From assembly GCA_045837725.1 (NCBI GenBank), contig JBEWZL010000263.1:124001-188000 (forward strand): a DNA stretch of 64,000 nucleotides. Direction: 5' to 3'. Positions 2,069-51,312 of this stretch are shown here, in pieces. Both the position numbers and the translations under genes were made by a program. Numbering within the stretch: position 1 is the first letter of the stretch; every line of letters starts with the position of its first letter. The notes beneath the pieces were generated by a model that had not been told where the DNA came from, searched no databases, and was given only the letters and a program-made list of their open reading frames with translations. The stretch comes from Vermamoeba vermiformis (taxonomy: Eukaryota).

Positions 2069-3357
2069 TTACAAATACGGCGTTTTCTGCTGCGAGGTGG
2101 CAGTGGTGGAGCGCTGTTCCGCGTCAGTGAGCTGCTCGGTGATGCTTTGCAGTTGTTTCATGTCGGTGGTGAGCAGCTCCATGATGACTTTCAGACCCTG
2201 CCGCTGCTCGTTCAAGAAGTGCGCAATCTTGTCGAGTGTCTCTTCATCGATCGGCTCGGACTGATAGCGCTGTCGCTCCTCGTTCTGCATCACGTGCTGC
2301 ATGGTGACAGTGGCCTGCAGTTCGTGGAGCAGTGTCTTGTACTGGTGCGGCTTGTTCAACTCGCGCATCATGCCCTCGCAGCGACTCTTGTACTGCTCCT
2401 CGCTGCTGCTCGCGTGCCAGCCCTGATTGGCCAGCAGCTCTTTCTTCTTCATCACGCGGATCACGCGCTGTGCCAGACTCATCTGCGTGCGACGGTACTG
2501 ATCGAGCTTGACCGTGGTCTCGAGCTCGTGCTGTCGCATCAACTGACTGATCAGCGCTTGGATGTTCTTCAACGCCACGCTGTGTTGCGCACTCATCTTG
2601 TCCTGCTCACTCACGCGCAGCTTCAGCTCTTTGAAGCCGATAGCTTGCACGGGGATCATGCTGTAGTGGGGACTGGTGTTAGTGGACGCGTATTAATAGG
2701 GGCACTCAACCTGTGCTGCACTCACCACTGCGGATCTGGCACGTTCTGCAAGGCATATTGCCACAACTTCTCGGGAAATTTCTCTGGCCGTCTCTCGCGC
2801 AGGGCCAGCACGTGCTGCGGCGGAACAATGTTGTAGAACACGTGTCGGAACTGACAGTACGCGCTGTTCGGATCCCACTGTCGCGCGATTTGTTCGAGCT
2901 CATCGAGGGGATTCTGCGTCAATAGTGCACCAGTGGGCTGCGCGGAGGTGTTGGTGGTGAATGGCGTCATGGTGGACTGCGCGGATGTGGCTGGCGTGGT
3001 GGGGGCAAACATGCTGCAATTAATTAGTAAGAATACGATCAGGCGTATCTGTGTTATGGCTATGCTTGTGTTTGATGTTGTTGAAATAATTTAATGTAAT
3101 TTAAAATAATTAATTATTAATAATATTGGGCGGCAAATTATTTACCTCGGGGTAGATCCAGCTCCAAAAGAAAAAGTGCTCGTTGCAGGAGCAGATTGTG
3201 CTGAAAAAAATGAGCTAGTAGTGGGTGTAGCAGCTGTCGTTGACGGTGTACCAAATGAGAAGGTAGATGTGCTCCCACTCGGCTGCGTTGTCGCCGAGGG
3301 TGAAAACAGCGACGAAGTGGAGCCAGTACTCGTGCCAGTGCCGAATGTGAACGCCAT
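2069..3357 (-). CDS. NUP54: Nucleoporin Nup54/Nup57
   Basis: FG-repeat N-terminal exon (FTFG, FSFG), then CQFRHVFYN and PVQAIGFKELKLR motifs and a C-terminal coiled coil; at least 2 GT-AG introns. Confidence 0.88.
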
Positions 3358-3462
3358 CGTGTGTGTAGTGTGGTGTTACGATTGAGCACTGATGTTCGCT
3401 AGTTGGTCGTGTCACAAAATGAAATTTTCTCCGTGAAAAATTGATGACCAATCTTCACGGAG

Positions 3463-3870
3463 GCATGTCATAACATCATGACAGCGTGATCTTCTGACTG
3501 GCGACAACTGATTGCTGGCACTAATCTCCTGCCTAAGGATAACTGATTCAGACCAATGCAGGTGCCTGGATTGTCCAGGAGGTCAAACAATCAATTTGCA
3601 GATTTCTTTATAATGCAGATAGACTGCCATTTGGGCAGTCATGCAGTCCACTGTCATTTGCAGAATGCTGCTAAGGGGCCTAGTAAGAACATTCCAGTCA
3701 TTAACTTCTTACAGAATCCAATAAAGTACCCAGAAGGTTTTATAACGGCTCTTGATGGTGTGAAAGGATGGCACCAGGGAACAGCAACAATTCCAGCTCC
3801 TGTCCATGGCAAAACAGAGGAAATGGGATTATGACCAACAGCTTTGGAAGAGAGGTCCAGAGTTGCATTA
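3463..3870 (-). pseudogene. Degenerate ORF remnant of unknown family
   Basis: One minus frame reads SHFLCFAMDRSW...YKTFWVLYWIL*EVNDWNVLTRPLSSILQMTVDCM...KLIV*PPGQ. In-frame stops at 3829-31, 3709-11 (TAA) and 3583-85 (TGA) are each one C>T from sense. Confidence 0.3.
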
Positions 3871-4434
3871 ATAGGTGTTAACTTAACATAAATAAAACAC
3901 CCATATCCTGTGTGGATGAGCCAGCCAATGTGAGATGTCCAGCTTATACTGTCTGCCATAAGCATCTGCAGACCCAGCCTTCCATCAGTAGCATCAGTTG
4001 GCTTTGGGCTAAGTGCTGGAGGCTGAAAATGCTAAGGGGAAAGAGTATTTCTATATGCCATGTATGTGGTTAAGCATATTCCTTCCATAAAAAAGTTTGC
4101 CCCATGCTGGACAAAGTTACAACATAAAAAAGTATGATGCAAAAATTTTTGGACGGTTAGGTGACAATGACTTGTAGCTAAAGTTCAGTGGTGCATAAAA
4201 TACGTATAGTTGTGTTGTGCAATATATGTGTTGATGGATGGGTTCATACTTAATGAAAATTTACAAATTGCTGTCACTACAATATCATTGACAATTACTC
4301 ATATCTTCTTGTTATATAGTGATAGTTCTATGTATTTCCAAAGTTTAAAGGTTTTGCAGCATATAGAACAAAGTTCTGTTACTTCAGTTCTTTGCAGAAC
4401 AAAGACATTTTCAGCCTCCAGTGGCTTGCCCAAG

Positions 4435-4516
4435 GAGGTCGGCCAGGCCAAGTTGGCCAGTGTGGCCGGCCAAGCCTTTGTGGCCAGGCCAAGTTGGCCA
4501 GTCCGGCCGGCCAGGT
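4435..4516 (+). repeat. GGCC-rich block (copy A)
   Basis: GGAGGTCGGCCAGGCCAAGTTGGCC... Same orientation as 5185-5277. Inverted relative to 8076-8172 (shares GCCTTTGTGGCC and GGCCAGTCCGGCCGGCCA) and to 5094-5121. Confidence 0.85.
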
Positions 4517-4625
4517 ATGTAGGTATGGTACAAGGCACCAACTGGTGTGTCTGTACATATGAGGCATTAGTATACATATTACTGCACCATTGGCTGATAA
4601 CAAACCACTAGTAACTGACATCCAG

Positions 4626-4833
4626 AAAAATAAAAAAATGGCAGACAGCAGGAATTGAACCTGGGACTGTATGGCTACTCAGATTTTTTCTAAGTCCAAT
4701 AAATAAAAATCCATGCAGATACCAGGAATTGAACCCAGGGCAACCACACCCCCATACAAACTTACCATAAAATTTTGCCTACAGCAGGAATTGAACCTGC
4801 TCCTGCATCATACCTGGCAAAATTACTAAGTCC
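4626..4833 (-). repeat. Three tandem tRNA-3'-half-like / B-box units
   Basis: GGTTCAATTCC on the minus strand at 4651-61, 4725-35 and 4787-97, each in a T-arm-like stem followed by about 7 nt, A/CCA and a T-rich run. Confidence 0.7.
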
Positions 4834-4862
4834 AACCGGCCGGCCTGGCCGGACCGGCCGCC

Positions 4863-4925
4863 CTTCTTGGGTCCACTGGTGCTAATGGCAAAGTTTGGTA
4901 TAAGTTGGTCAATTACTAACATCAG
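4863..4925 (+). repeat. 63-bp direct repeat, copy 1 (copy 2 at 8198-8260)
   Basis: CTTCTTGGGTCCACTGGTGCTAATGGCAAAGTTTGGTATAAGTTGGTCAATTACTAACATCAG; 58/63 identical to copy 2. Confidence 0.92.
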
Positions 4926-5184
4926 CGGATGCAGCGACCCCAGACGCAATGTCCACGGACGGATGAAAATTTTTTGGAGGATGGGATGCTGCCTATACCT
5001 ATCGAAGTTTCAACTTGTCTGGGCCAGATAACTTAGCTGGGCTGACATCTCACCCTGCTGGCTAGTCATCCACACTGGATTGGCCCTCCTCCCAAAGGCT
5101 TGGCCAGCCACACAGGCCAACCCTGGCCAAACTAGGCTGAAGATCTGTGCAGAACATTCCCAGGCCTCCAGCACTAAGTCCAAA

Positions 5185-5277
5185 GGGGGACGGCCGGGCC
5201 AAGTTGGCCTGGGCGGCCGGTTTGGCCTGGGCGGCCGGAGTGGCCAGGGTGGCCGGTCCGGCCAGGCCGGCCGGTGG
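5185..5277 (+). repeat. GGCC-rich block (copy B), 18-nt periodic
   Basis: GGGGGACGGCC start, GGCCGG-N3-GGCC-N5 period; colinear inverted match to 8076-8172. Confidence 0.85.
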
Positions 5278-5428
5278 GACTTAGTAATTTTACCAGGTAG
5301 GCTGCAGGAGCAGGTTCAATTCCTGGTGACTGCTGCCAATTTTTTATTTTTTGGACTTAGCAAAATTCAATGGCCTTTGAGTCAAGGGTTCAAATCCTGG
5401 TGTATGCATGAATTGCTAATTATTTTTT
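5277..5428 (+). repeat. Two tandem tRNA-3'-half-like / B-box units
   Basis: Unit GGACTTAG...GGTTCAAWTCCTGG...TGC(C)A...TTTTTT; B boxes at 5313-23 and 5387-97. Confidence 0.7.
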
Positions 5429-5984
5429 AGTTTGTGACCACAACTCAACCATCCATAAAACAATACTAAACAGCTTATATTAATCATTAACTATCTTATA
5501 TAACCTTGGTAAGTCTTATTTTCAAGTATTTTGAGCAGATCTGAGCATTTGACAAAAAATCGTCTGAGGTTGGCTGGCTTGCAGGCGCTCTATCTCAGTT
5601 AGTAATTCATGCACATGCGTGCACATGCGTTCATTAGATAGAGCTCTAAATTTGCAAGTAAATTAAAAAAAATTTATCGATTTTGGATGCGTAGATGCGG
5701 AAATTGCTTAAAATCACTCCTGCTAGGCAGCAACCTCTTCCTATTAATTCCGCATTATCTCGGGTTGTATTGCTTTGTTTTTCAATATCTTGGTGTCGTT
5801 TTGATAGGAAATTCAATTTCGCATTCATTCAAAAAAAGTTCGAGTCAATTTGATGCAGCACAAGCTGAGAAATTAGCGTTTTTGTACATTTGCAGATCAT
5901 GTTAAGCAAGCAGTCATAACACACTGTCACTAATGGTGATATTCATCAGTTTACCAGCTCTCACAACTGATTAAAGTAGTTGTA

Positions 5985-7973
5985 ATGTACAGGTAAGTGA
6001 TATTGAATTGCATCGATTCAGTATTAATATTCGTCTACCAGATCCCCAAAGAAAATAAAACGCACAAGCAAAAAACAGTTCAAAGTCCTCAAGTTAGAGA
6101 CAAAACTATTATCAGCCAACGCTCAAGTAGTATTATATGAGTACATTAAAGACAAATTGGAGGTGGCCTCTCAAGGACGCAGTGTGCCTTTTCGCCTACT
6201 GCCGTAAGTCAATGTTTTTCATTTTGAACCGTGAATAACTTTGTACTAGGAGCCACCTAACTCCTGCTGATGCCACCAAAATATTCTTACATTGGCTAAT
6301 GAATTACAAGCCATTGCGATATTATGCAGCATGGTTAGAGGATCTGGTGCCGAAAAGTAGCTTTAATGAGTTCATCTATCGAATGCTTGAAATTGTACGT
6401 GCAAATCATTGTGTGCAGCTTATATTTATTCAATTGAATTGCAGCTAAAGGACTTTCCAAATGAGCATATCTCTTCAACGGCAGAGCAACGCGAGAGAGC
6501 TTCGCAAGCAGAGTTGTTAGGGTTATTTACGCGCATTCGAGCTGCAATGGACGGCACGCACACCCCTGTACAAGTTACAAAAGCAGTGCGTAAAGCCTTG
6601 AACAAAAAAGGAAACAAGTATCACAGTTTTAAGCTAAAGACACAAGCTTTAACAACCTTGGTAAGCAAGGATACTTCTTACAATTGTTCTAATTCTGTTA
6701 GGCGTGCACTGACATGGCAAATCGCTTTTTCTATGTCTCGGATTCGCATCCAGCTGGTGAATACAATGACCAAAAGCTGCTATCAACATACATCGAAGAC
6801 TACAAAACTGTCATGCAAAAAGGAGAAGTGACAATTGCTGATGGAGCTTTCTCAAAGGATGCACCAAGTACCATGTTTTGGGGTAAGAATAGCAATATTA
6901 TTTAGTTTTATTTTGACGGTGATTAGTTCCCATTCGAAAACCTCAAGGAGGAGAATTATCTGCTGTACAAGCACTTAGCAATGATGCCCATCGCCTCATT
7001 AGAAGTAGCATAGAAAGAAGCTTTGGTTTACTCAAAACTTTGTTTAAAGTTTTGAGAAAAAAGTACAAGCACAGACTAGACACCTACAACTTGGTCTTCA
7101 AAATTTGTGTTGCACTGTACAACATTCAGCTGACTGCATCAACTGTGAACTACAGCAACCATCCAATTATGACGTAAGACAATGTACAAACACAATGAAG
7201 TACTAATAGTATTGCAGCTATGAGCCAGTGCTAAATCAGGAATTAGATGGTGAAGAACAGTCAGAAAATGAAGAGGAAATGGCTTTTAACTCATTGCCTT
7301 TCTTTAAGCAGCTTGCTGTGTGGGATGGTGAAGAGCCTGAACTTCAACCGCCACAGCCACCAGAGGACAGCAGTGAATCTGGAGATGAACAGATGGTTAA
7401 TGCATTCAATATGGCCATTGATGAACGAAACTTGGCAGCTTTGAAGGATGCTGACATCAGTGATGATGATGACAATGCGTTTCCTGCCCATCATGAAAGC
7501 ATGGATGATGAGGAGTATGTGAATGATGCTTACGACGAGCCTCCAGACTACGAGATATCTGAACAAGATCTGAACACCAACAAGCGGCAAAGAAGAAAGC
7601 TTCTGAATAAGCTCAGGCACTCGCCAGCTATGTTACAGAATTCAAAGCTTATTACAAGTTATGGAAAGACTTCTCAAATGCATCAAAGAGAATGCAAAAC
7701 TTGCACAATAGTTCTGCGCAGAACCCAGTTGCCTTCAATAACAGATCATTCAGAGAGGCGCTCCATGCTGTTTCTCAAGCTAATAAGGCTATAACGGATG
7801 CAGACAAGCGGTTCACAATGTTTTCTGTCCTGACACCTGCTGACATGGAGTTGTTGAGAGATCTGGCGGAGAAAGACGAGTCAGATGCTTCTTCTAACAG
7901 CAATCAAGCCCCTGCTGTAGATAGTGATGAAAGTGGACCCTCCCAGACACCTTCCAAAAAGCAAAAAGTGTAA
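5985..7973 (+). CDS. IS5/ISL2EU/PIF-Harbinger-type DDE transposase (DDE_Tnp_4-like) with acidic C-terminal extension; extension probably frameshifted near 7600
   Basis: Six GT-AG introns splice an HTH-like segment (LTPADATKIFLHWL), then RIRAAMDGTH (D1), YHSFKLK, HPAGEYND, TIADGAF (D2), PIRKPQGGELS, RSSIERSFGLLKTLFKVL (E) and CVALYN. The main frame stops at 7794; an overlapping frame ends PSKKQKV at 7973. Confidence 0.88.
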
Positions 7974-8075
7974 CTTCCATAGACAATGTCCCTTAATGTT
8001 CAGAGAGTGTGTATCAGTAGTTTTATAGTGTAGTTAATATAAATATGCAAGTTTTAGTCACTTATCTCATATACC

Positions 8076-8172
8076 CACTTGGCCGGCCGGACTGGCCGGG
8101 CCGGCCACTCAGTCCAAGCCGGCCACAAAGGCCCGGCCGGCCATCTTGGCTTATCTGGCCTGGCCGTCCCCC
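8076..8172 (-). repeat. GGCC-rich block (copy C, inverted)
   Basis: Reverse complement starts GGGGGACGGCCAGGCC and aligns to copies A and B. Confidence 0.85.
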
Positions 8173-8197
8173 AAAGATTTTGATGCCAATAATGGTA

Positions 8198-8336
8198 CTT
8201 CTTGAGTCCGCTGGTACTAATGGCAATGTTTGGTAGAAGTTGGTCAATTACTAACATCAGTGGTGTGCCACCAAGGATGGACAGACAAAAAAAAAAGGGA
8301 TGTTGCCTTGGGCAGAACAACCCCTATGCTTATACC
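8198..8336 (+). repeat. Terminal module copy 2: 63-bp core, GGAC/AGAC tract and imperfect hairpin
   Basis: Core repeat, then GGATGGACAGACA, an A-run and GGGATGTTGCC-TTG-GGCAGAACAACCC. Copy 1 has CGGACGGATG...GGGATGCTGCC at 4983. Confidence 0.75.
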
Positions 8337-12348: not shown

Positions 12349-12923
12349 TTAGAGGAGAGATTCGTATTTAACAGGGGCGATGGTTTCAATGTTAGCCTTG
12401 GCCTTGATAAATTGAGCAGCGGCGGGAGCTCCGGGAGTTCTCTTCAAACCAGTGGCTTTTTCTATAATTGAATAATCATAGATGAATATTGGTACGATAA
12501 TGATAACAAATAGTAGAACGAATATAAGTAAGGACGATCAGCTAAACAGATCTTACCTCCTTTCTTAAGAGCGCGCTTCTTGGCGTCATTCTCCTTTCGT
12601 CGCTTAAGGAATTCAACGTTGCTCTTGGAGGGGCGAACGTGTTCAATGCGAACGTGGATTCGCTTGGGGATGATGCGGTTCTTCACTTGTTTGTGAATCT
12701 CAACACCAATGGCGCGAGGAGTAACGTTCCAAACGCGACCAGTGCGGCCGTGGTAGTACTTGTGGGGCATACCCTTGTGAACAGCACCATTGCCCTTGAT
12801 GTCAACCAATTGACCAGTCTTGTAAATGTTCAAGTAGGTGGAGCTCTTCAAGGGACCGTTAGTACGGAAATCTCTTCTGAACAAGTATCTAGTGTGAGCT
12901 CTGTAACCAAACGAGTGAGGCAT
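12349..12923 (-). CDS. RPL21: 60S ribosomal protein L21
   Basis: [15 protein letters not shown]...[13 protein letters not shown]...[10 protein letters not shown]; last exon about 12460-12349; 5'UTR intron about 12924-13161. Confidence 0.97.
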
Positions 12924-13585: not shown

Positions 13586-15479
13586 TTAATGCTTGAACTT
13601 CTGCGGCGAGGCTGCGAATCCACCCTGTGGCGAGGCGAAGAGCACTTCTACGAGGAGTGGAATGTGATCGGAGCACATGAACGGGTTGGGCAGAGCACCG
13701 TAGCTGGAGAGTACGATGGACGGGTCCACGCCCTTGAGCACGCGCAGAGGAGTGAAGGCGTGCGGAGTGTACCAGATGTAGTCCAGCACTCCGACAAACT
13801 CGCTGGTGAAGTTCGTGAAGGGAGGTTCACCACCCACCTGTGCATATGAACTGCGCAGCGGTATGTTGTGATTGAGCCCTGTGCCCGTAGCAGCAGTGTA
13901 GGAGCCGTACTGATAGTCCACAAAGTCCTGGTGATTGTTGTCCACGTGTCCAGTGTGCAGCAGTTGATAGACACCGCTGTCGGGCATCGAGTTGAAGTCA
14001 CCGCACAGCAGCATGGGCAGCCAGCCTTGCGACTGTTTGCCGCGCTCTTTGTTGATCTGCGCGAGATAGCGTGCATTGAGTTCTTCGAGCTGTTCGAGCA
14101 TGAGCTGTGTCTGCATCAGCTTGACATCGCAGTACTCGGGGTCCCAGTGAATGTGCGTGGTCACCACCATGATGCGATCGTGTGGCAATCGAGCGCGAGC
14201 ACGTGATTTGACGCGCAACAGCACTGCGAGGGCAATGTTGTCCTTGGTCATCAAGCGATTCAGACCCGAGTCGTGGCTGTTGTTCGTCTTCTTGCCCGTG
14301 AGTTGTTCGTACTTGTGCATGGCGAGTTGTTGGAACTCAATCAGCTGCAGATCGAGCAGATCAAACAGCTCGGACTTGAAGAATATAGCGCACCCATCCA
14401 CTCGTCGCACGTCCTCCTTCGTGCGCGCACGTGACTTGGGTCGGAACACACCGAGGTAGCCCAATCGCTCCATTTCAGGCTCGAAGTAGGTCGTGAAGCT
14501 CTCATTCTCGACCTCTTGCAGACAAATCACATCCGCATTGCACTGATTCAGCTCGTTCAGCAGCCGTTGCTTGCGATAGTCCCAGTGCAGGGCCCAGCGC
14601 GGACAATAGACCGTGGCTGGTCCCGTGTAGCTGTCGGCGAGTATGTTGTAGCACATGACGCGCAGTGTGGCCTTCATGTCGGCATTGCTGAGTGCCGTGT
14701 TGTACTGCCACTCGCGCGGTGGTGGTGGATCACCCGCTGATGTGAATAAGAGATTAATAGGGCTGTAGGTGATTGGGGCAGTGTAACGCTGCTGACCGAA
14801 AGAGCTCCTCGTTATTCAAAAAATTATTGATTAATTTGATCGTCAATAAATTATCGATGAACACCTTCGTAGATATATATTGGTAATATTAATATAACGA
14901 TCAAAATATTCTGATATTTTAATTATTTCGGTTTGATCGCTTACTCGGCATTTTTTCTCGCAGAAATGAAGTGATAAACATAGCATCTTGTTGCAATACG
15001 TCAATAGAAGGTGATATAATGGGGTTGCCATCGATTTCGAGCTTCTCCAGTCGAAATAACTTGCCCATCTCGACGGGCAGCTCGCGGATCTGGTTGTGTA
15101 CAAGCGACAAGACCTGGAGTTGCAACAAATTACTGATATCTGGTGGTATCCACATAATTTGATTGTAAGAGAGGTCCAGACGACGCAATGATAGCAACAC
15201 AGTGAAGAGCTCCACCGGCAGCAAGGTGAGTTGGTTGTGGTTCAGATACAGCTCTGTTAACTGCGAGAACTGTGCAATACTCGGGGATATAATGCGCAAT
15301 CCGTTGTAGCTGATGTCTAGACGTGACCACTCTTCAATATGGTGTATGACGCGCTTGGGTTTGTAAATTGCTTCTTGCGCATCTCGATGCGAGCGATATT
15401 GCTCTTTGACAAGAGGTTCGAGTACCTTTATCTCCACTAGGTCCTCACCCTCACCGACGACACTAAGCGGCGTGTACAT
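13586..15479 (-). CDS. CCR4: CCR4/CNOT6 deadenylase (LRR + EEP nuclease)
   Basis: N-terminal LRRs; CYNILAD, ICLQEV, DGCAIF, THIHWDP, GDFNS, LDYIWY and SDHIPL motifs. Confidence 0.95.

Positions 15480-47458: not shown

Positions 47459-51312
<3,854 letters not shown>

Follow-up and report, generated by a model that had tools for sequence, protein, structure and literature searches.

Tandem B-box modules as a subterminal component of a PIF/Harbinger transposon family in Vermamoeba vermiformis

Introduction

B boxes follow the consensus GGTTCRANNCC, and A boxes follow the consensus TRGCNNAGTGG. Clusters of B boxes with TFIIIC barrier activity are found at ETC sites and at the inverted-repeat boundaries of fission yeast heterochromatin. 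tRNA-derived SINEs, which transpose via RNA, carry an A box as well as a B box and end in LINE-like or A-rich tails, and some of them have been reported as boundaries. Among DNA transposons, PIF/Harbinger elements usually prefer TWA as the target site, and protein-binding repeats are expected in their subterminal regions. To our knowledge, the role of an insulator or roadblock that spreads TFIIIC sites has so far been tied to tRNA genes and SINEs.

Here, we analyzed a stretch of 64,000 nucleotides from Vermamoeba vermiformis (contig JBEWZL010000263.1, positions 124,001 to 188,000), which is called the window below and to which all coordinates refer. We show that five B-box-bearing units in this window form an integral part of the subterminal region in one PIF/Harbinger family, and we weigh what could have preserved them.

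Results

Five units share an exact B-box core

The units are located within 803 bp, three on the minus strand (M1, 4626-4697; M2, 4698-4768; M3, 4765-4833) and two on the plus strand (P1, 5277-5346; P2, 5353-5428), where the original prediction had placed them, and all five could be aligned in one orientation. The module is about 70 bp long and consists of GGACTTAG, about 28 variable nucleotides, a T-arm-like segment and an oligo-T run. The consensus B box proposed for each unit was recovered as a 13-nt core, GGTTCAAWTCCTG, which is exact in all five units (4649-4661 in M1, 4723-4735 in M2, 4785-4797 in M3, 5313-5325 in P1 and, as GGTTCAAATCCTG, 5387-5399 in P2), is absent from the rest of the 64-kb window and fits every specified position of the B-box consensus. 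Every unit has GGTTCAAWTCC as its B box, and the slightly wider pattern GGTTCRAWTCC occurred six times in the window, where 0.06 matches were expected; five of these sites are the units, and the sixth, at 48112, stands without a surrounding unit.

The features proposed on either side of the B box were also largely found. The common start GGACTTAG, predicted for most units, is present in four of the five, the exception being M2, and one extra copy is located at 5174-5181 on the minus strand, outside all units. The predicted T-rich run is present in 5/5 units as at least four T starting 10-23 nt past the B box, and these runs are weak evidence for a Pol III terminator because the region is AT-rich. 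A covariance model built from the five units recovered, at E<1, just those five in the 64 kb.

Comparison between the units showed 66% mean column identity over an ancestral module of ~72 nt. The acceptor-like 3' strands, which had been described as variable, turned out to be alignable variants of one sequence, which argues that all five units are diverged paralogous copies of one ancestral module. The A/CCA ending ascribed to each unit did not hold either, and CCA was found in M1 and P1 alone.

The units are located in two insertions of one family

The original prediction described divergent arrays around a central spacer inside a DNA transposon, upstream of its transposase. The transposon was confirmed and can now be assigned to PIF/Harbinger (DDE_Tnp_4), but there are two elements, not one. 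These are two copies in opposite orientation, here termed E1 and E2, and the spacer (4863-5184) is host repeat DNA.

E1 (5185-8172, plus strand) carries P1 and P2. Its left terminal inverted repeat (5185-5274, plus) and its right one (8083-8172, minus) are formed by arrays of a GGCC 9-bp repeat (G2 and G3, respectively) and make an inverted pair of 90 nt with 76% identity, and the identical 11-mer GGGGGACGGCC is found at both termini, at 5185 on the plus strand and at 8172 on the minus strand. A 3-bp AAA duplication flanks the element at 5182-5184 and 8173-8175, and empty paralogous sites with a single AAA were present in contigs of the DNA run X1; this duplication departs from the TWA preference. 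The exon at 6929-7174 matched PF13359 (DDE_Tnp_4) with E=3.7e-9 and 36.8 bits against a cutoff of 24.8, and none of the other seven pieces scanned with Pfam gave a transposase match. The inverted ends, the AAA flanks and the DDE_Tnp_4 match therefore identify E1 as an autonomous PIF/Harbinger element.

The transposase exons were placed by eye on open frames with GT..AG boundaries (5985-5992, 6042-6205, 6251-6395, 6446-6660, 6702-6883 and 6928-7174, all plus), a model that is inferred and includes the putative start codon at 5985. The motifs DGTH, SDSHP and IERSFG can be read in these frames, and an acidic C-terminal region extends from the exons to about 7970. Past the DDE domain, the frame runs through this long acidic region and then shifts to an open frame at 7611-7973, and neither of the two matched Pfam; 7219-7973 may extend the C-terminus, represent a second gene or belong to a frameshifted copy. 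No Myb/SANT/MADF-like Pfam match (E<=0.1) was obtained in 7219-7791 or 7611-7970, frames that were picked by eye. P1 and P2 are located directly inside the left end of E1 and are directed toward the transposase gene, ~555 bp before its inferred start at 5985, so that the proposed location upstream of the transposase is true for E1. The start of its first unit, GTGGGACTTAG (5272-5284), resembles the terminus GGGGGACGGCC (5185-5195) at 7/11 positions; unit starts might act as pseudo-termini, or the likeness might be due to chance.

E2 (4434-4862, minus strand) is a ~430-bp non-autonomous, MITE-like member of the same family and carries M3, M2 and M1. The end far from the units is the GGCC 9-bp array G1 (4434-4515, plus), which starts with the terminus-like GGAGGTCGGCC at 4434, belongs to the repeat families D1/D2 and forms the inverted pairs I3, I4, I7 and I8 with 8085-8172. 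On the unit side, there is a truncated inner part of such an array (G4, 4834-4862, minus). The pattern GGCC-N5-GGCC-N5-GGCC occurs 12 times in the window (0.00 expected), always within 4446-8142. At least seven X1 contigs link 4401/4421 to 4863-4879 through 18-40 other letters; 4434-4862 is therefore absent in other copies of the surrounding repeat and represents the insertion E2. E2 is a MITE-like derivative that has lost the transposase, together with its unit-side terminus and ~26 nt of the adjoining repeat.

After flipping, E2 and the left end of E1 are collinear, with the array and M3 first and M1, the counterpart of P2, last. The array plus M3 and the array plus P1 form the inverted pair I1 (4782-4864 vs 5246-5328; 83 nt, 93%), and M3 shares 93% identity with P1 from its 5' end up to and including the B box. 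M1 matches P2 with 75% identity over 97 nt, from B box to B box. M2 matches P1 in its B box and 3' part. M3 and M2 split one P1-like unit between them, and the ~65 nucleotides that E2 has in excess of E1 belong to M3 (its 3' end) and M2 (its 5' part). In both elements, the units are located immediately inside the same end and face inward, as an array that directly adjoins one terminal inverted repeat on its inner side, with two units in E1 and three in E2; in E1, this is the transposase-upstream end. The ends of E1 and E2 are 74-79% alike.

Both copies are inserted in a repeat, here termed R, of which we found spans at 4300-4433, 4863-5010, 5141-5184 and 8173-8330. The left part of its first copy (4300..4433, plus) is the target of E2 and had an X1 depth of 34,000-55,000; the right part (4863..5010, plus) makes up most of the supposed central spacer and had a depth of 75,000-127,000 over 4872-4959. 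The single-copy stretch at 5136-5600 showed a flat summed X1 depth of ~298. With depths of 34,000-127,000 over 4300-4431 and 4872-4959, R is therefore a high-copy repeat, and its summed contig depth in X1 is 100-400 times the single-copy level. E1 is bordered on the left by an R-like flank (5141-5184, plus), which is closed by the AAA duplication and whose likeness to R is seen in repeat D5 and inverted pair I18, and on the right by the second AAA and the right part of a second copy of R (8173..8263, plus).

The segment 4863-4928 is 91% identical to 8198-8263 in the right flank of E1, and the bases spanning empty R sites in X1 contigs match 8173-8197 of the same flank. E1 and E2 therefore occupy one and the same site in two neighboring copies of R and face opposite ways. 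Both Harbinger copies are located at a ...CCAAA/G... site of R, and this shared site, together with the at least seven contigs with an empty site, suggests that the family inserts site-specifically into R. The divergent layout of the units came about by accident, through two insertions, and has no design behind it.

The reading as one palindromic element that bears the units in its arms was rejected, since each half has termini of its own and 4863-5184 belongs to the host repeat. We also rejected GGAGGAGGGCC at 5082-5092 as a terminus, since it aligns to the interior of an array. Further inverted repeats (4002-4031 vs 4406-4433, 82%; 3907-3934 vs 5089-5116, 75%) link sequence left of 4031 with R and the arrays, and 5085-5135 resembles a degenerate GGCC array on the minus strand. 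Remnants of a third element end may be present at this locus.

Copies related to these elements were found elsewhere. Over the E2 units, the X1 depth sums to 2,100-7,000, or 7-24 times the single-copy level, and such a summed contig depth is not a copy number; P2 (5353-5428) and likewise 5312-5600 are at the single-copy level. In organism B (X5), a 314-nt contig covers 5184-5388 with four differences and continues into a different flank, and the end beside a different flank therefore fits the movement of an E1-like element. Contigs from an aquifer metagenome (X3) cover M1-M3 with 3-11 differences. Parts of the 1.2-kb stretch around the units occur in aquifer, biofilm, freshwater, water and canine metagenome runs from 12 studies, which indicates nothing firm on habitat. 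The neighbors of the transposon nest are ordinary eukaryotic genes, such as a ribosomal protein L21e-like ORF (12462-12923, minus, assigned by eye) and an Exo_endo_phos gene for a CCR4-type nuclease (13586-14677, minus, with a very high atlas score).

The B box is conserved while the stems decay

To better understand which part of the unit has been maintained, we compared the alignment columns with at most one gap. Among these 75 columns, 22 are invariant, and 12 of the 22 are included in one 13-column window that coincides with the B box, a clustering matched in 7 of 200,000 column shuffles; the comparison covers five non-independent units from two elements only. The B box is thus clearly better conserved than its flanks (12/13 vs 22/75 invariant columns), so that, on the available data, the equal conservation that would have spoken against the original prediction was not observed for the B box. 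Part of the identity between units is recent and not selected, given the recent 93% patch shared by P1 and M3. Among the rows listed, none of the variant positions that distinguish other DNA runs from the window is located inside a B box, which is only a hint that variants between copies spare the B boxes.

The pairing of the stems showed a different picture. A T arm had been assigned to each unit, and its T-loop/B-box core is present in 5/5, but the 5-bp T stem that should close the 7-nt T loop is fully paired in just two, namely M3 and, with two G-U pairs, M2. There is one mismatch in M1, one in P1 and two in P2, whose T stem is the weakest. The 3' strand of the T stem, CCTG, is invariant, and the 5' strand is variable. 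The covariation check proposed for the T stem gave no sign of stem conservation: the RNAalifold consensus is weak at -4.42 kcal/mol with an unfavorable covariation term of +0.52, and in the extended hairpin that it draws, 3 of 11 pairs changed on both sides and several pairs are broken. Single-unit folds had z-scores of -1.83 to +0.47. The best one is P1, which can form a minihelix-like hairpin (GGCUGCAG..T arm..CUGCUGCC) at -21.1 kcal/mol, and 8 of 200 shuffles folded equally well. An invariant B box next to incompletely paired stems favors a constraint that looks like a DNA motif over one on an RNA helix.

The same data bear on whether the units could be small Pol III genes, in which TFIIIC would recruit Pol III and transcription would stop at the oligo-T, giving hairpin RNAs of 50-70 nt topped by the T arm. 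Such RNAs could correspond to a tRNA 'top half' and be processed like tRNA or fed to small-RNA pathways. The order of the parts fits, since the B box is followed in every unit by its T run and (T)GGACTTAG is located 26-28 nt upstream in 4/5, a spacing like that between A box and B box, and the P1 hairpin and the both-sides changes in the consensus extended hairpin are in line with a folded product. However, we could not recognize an A box 30-60 nt upstream of the B box, as the candidate GGACTTAGNNN agrees by eye with 4-5 of the 9 specified positions of the A-box consensus; the consensus fold is weak, four of the five single-unit folds are unremarkable, and the stems show no upkeep past GG/CC. 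One RNA run with the species label of X1 (X22, a cDNA library in which small RNAs are improbable) gave 0 reads on this stretch, an outcome that carries no weight against transcription. We consider small Pol III genes decidedly unlikely on these sequence comparisons.

Conservation at the level of DNA, not of pairing, would also be expected if the 13-mer were a site for the transposase or an accessory protein of the element, or for another host factor, and owed its B-box likeness to ancestry alone. The B-box motif could in that case be bound by another protein instead, and the subterminal location of the units is where protein-binding repeats are expected in PIF/Harbinger elements. The motif, however, is found at one end of E1 alone, with no match near the right end, and the binding sites of the element itself are better sought in the GGCC 9-bp arrays, which both ends carry. 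This makes another binding protein a very improbable explanation.

The units are not tRNA genes

No tRNA was called by ARAGORN in the 64-kb window, and Rfam gave no gathering-level hit there, in agreement with the original prediction that a cloverleaf is absent. A permissive Rfam scan (E<=10) of 4560-5480 returned 11-17-nt T-arm matches to tmRNA, the best with E=0.12. The same scan produced a match to tRNA-Sec, which we regard as spurious, as the GGCC array was borrowed as an acceptor stem. Split or permuted tRNA genes were rejected on the basis of missing 5' halves, broken stems and tandem paralogy, and distinct tRNA 3' halves with separate acceptor identities were rejected because the strands are paralogous variants. 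With the stems decaying and the 13-nt B box alone invariant, the units are not a tRNA or a tRNA half.

Further copies were sought by a pattern scan of metagenomes with GGACTTAG-N20-36-GGTTCAAWTCC, which retrieved 120 loci. Among these matches, 101 of 120 are located in tRNA-Leu(tag) genes of bacterial type called by ARAGORN. In tRNA-Leu(UAG), GGACTTAG followed by GGTTCAAWTCC with a span of 45-47 nt is the pattern of the anticodon stem/loop plus the T loop, and GGA-CTTAG in these matches is what we take to be the end of the anticodon stem plus the loop. Where the span is at most 48 nt, the anticodon stem is closed by a TCC placed two bases past GGACTTAG in 103 of 107 matches. In contrast, this TCC closure is present in none of the four window units with GGACTTAG, and the window units are without the 5' half, the D arm and the variable arm. 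The units may go back to a class II tRNA-Leu(UAG)-type gene, as a remnant of its 3' two-thirds; given the missing closure and arms, this ancestry is only suggested by the shared pattern.

No homologous locus was found among the sequences retrieved. By blastn (E<=1e-3), none of the 120 metagenome loci is related to the window. A scan for two B boxes retrieved a further 100 loci on genome contigs and 3 on viral contigs, which are prokaryotic tRNA arrays, and 0 of the 223 retrieved metagenome, genome and viral loci were related to the window by blastn.

When five pattern matches that ARAGORN had not called were run through Rfam, one of them (L032) reached the tRNA threshold. One class that ARAGORN did not call recurs in the metagenomes with a span of 53-54 nt and the layout GGGACTTAG...CTCATAACCC...GGTTCAAATCC...CGCAACCA (L012, L032, L043, L053, L054, L091, L095, L102, L108, L116 and L118). 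Among the three members examined in the Rfam scan (L012, L032 and L053), just L032 was at the tRNA threshold. This class is unrelated to the window and may be an intron-bearing or unusual tRNA-like gene.

Discussion

The lack of tRNA identity raises the question of whether anything in the units is still in use. They could be neutral relics: the ancestral element would once have taken up part of a tRNA-type gene, which was then duplicated in tandem and left to decay without a function for the element or the host. Several observations agree with this: the T stems are broken in three of the five units, P2, which is located in the sole autonomous copy, is the most degenerate unit, tRNA models give no match, and rearrangement altered the number of units in E2 and split one P1-like unit into M3 and M2. 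DNA transposons, such as Pack-type elements, are also known to acquire pieces of host genes. However, simple decay does not readily account for 12 of 13 invariant B-box columns at an overall divergence of ~34%, for an identical position of the array in two elements with such diverged ends, or for a T run kept by all five units. We therefore hold the neutral account to be somewhat unlikely.

We favor, tentatively and as slightly short of an even chance, the reading that a captured piece of tRNA was reduced to a TFIIIC-binding B box with a possible role as a barrier or roadblock. The module would probably have begun as a captured piece of a tRNA-type gene, whose stems would then have decayed while the 13-nt B box was held invariant. 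As the B box alone is invariant next to decaying stems, any retained activity would most likely be at the DNA level. Each B box may bind TFIIIC without giving a tRNA product, as at 'extra TFIIIC' sites, and such a cluster, located between the end of the transposon and the promoter of its transposase, could then serve as a chromatin barrier or a transcriptional roadblock, a role that we infer purely from position. Non-autonomous copies such as E2 would spread clusters of B boxes around the genome.

If the B boxes do bind TFIIIC, this would be a DNA transposon with its own insulator or roadblock that spreads TFIIIC sites via short derivatives, and it would show a captured tRNA fragment whittled down to its protein-binding core. 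Extended to its full form, a DNA transposon with a portable TFIIIC barrier whose MITEs seed TFIIIC sites or small Pol III units, the proposal is doubtful from what the letters of this locus can tell. Even with inert units, the locus would remain a clean case of site-specific Harbinger insertion in a high-copy repeat combined with the capture of a host fragment.

Split and permuted tRNA genes (reviewed in PMC3978253) likewise include a stand-alone 3' portion of a tRNA. The units differ from such genes in having neither 5' halves nor leader complementarity, in their broken stems, and in being tandem paralogues instead of carrying distinct acceptor identities. In fish, a MADF protein derived from PIF/Harbinger is reported to promote the 7SL gene next to it, along with the binding of TFIIIC at that place (PMC11893794), which makes it a loose link of Harbinger-derived proteins to Pol III genes and not a precedent. 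In searches of open-access PMC and bioRxiv literature, we found no report of B-box/T-arm arrays in a DNA transposon.

PIF/Harbinger elements and Tourist-like MITEs share with the present family the DDE_Tnp_4 domain, terminal inverted repeats, a 3-bp duplication and a short copy with shared ends. In contrast to them, E1 has long ends of ~90 nt made of 9-bp GGCC repeats and tandem B-box/T-arm modules inside one end, and a Myb/SANT/MADF-like second protein was not recognized in the frames scanned. tRNA-derived SINEs also disperse B-box, tRNA-derived sequence by means of a mobile element. Dispersed single units with their own duplications and a tail, as SINEs would show, were not what we found: the units stand in tandem inside transposon ends, are followed by T runs, are without a recognizable A box and are passengers of a cut-and-paste element. 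ETC sites and the fission yeast boundary elements resemble the units in their clustered B boxes without a complete tRNA gene, and the mode that we propose would be the same by analogy with ETC sites, with TFIIIC bound, no productive tRNA synthesis and a barrier as the outcome. In contrast to ETC sites, the units ride inside a mobile DNA element and end in oligo-T runs.
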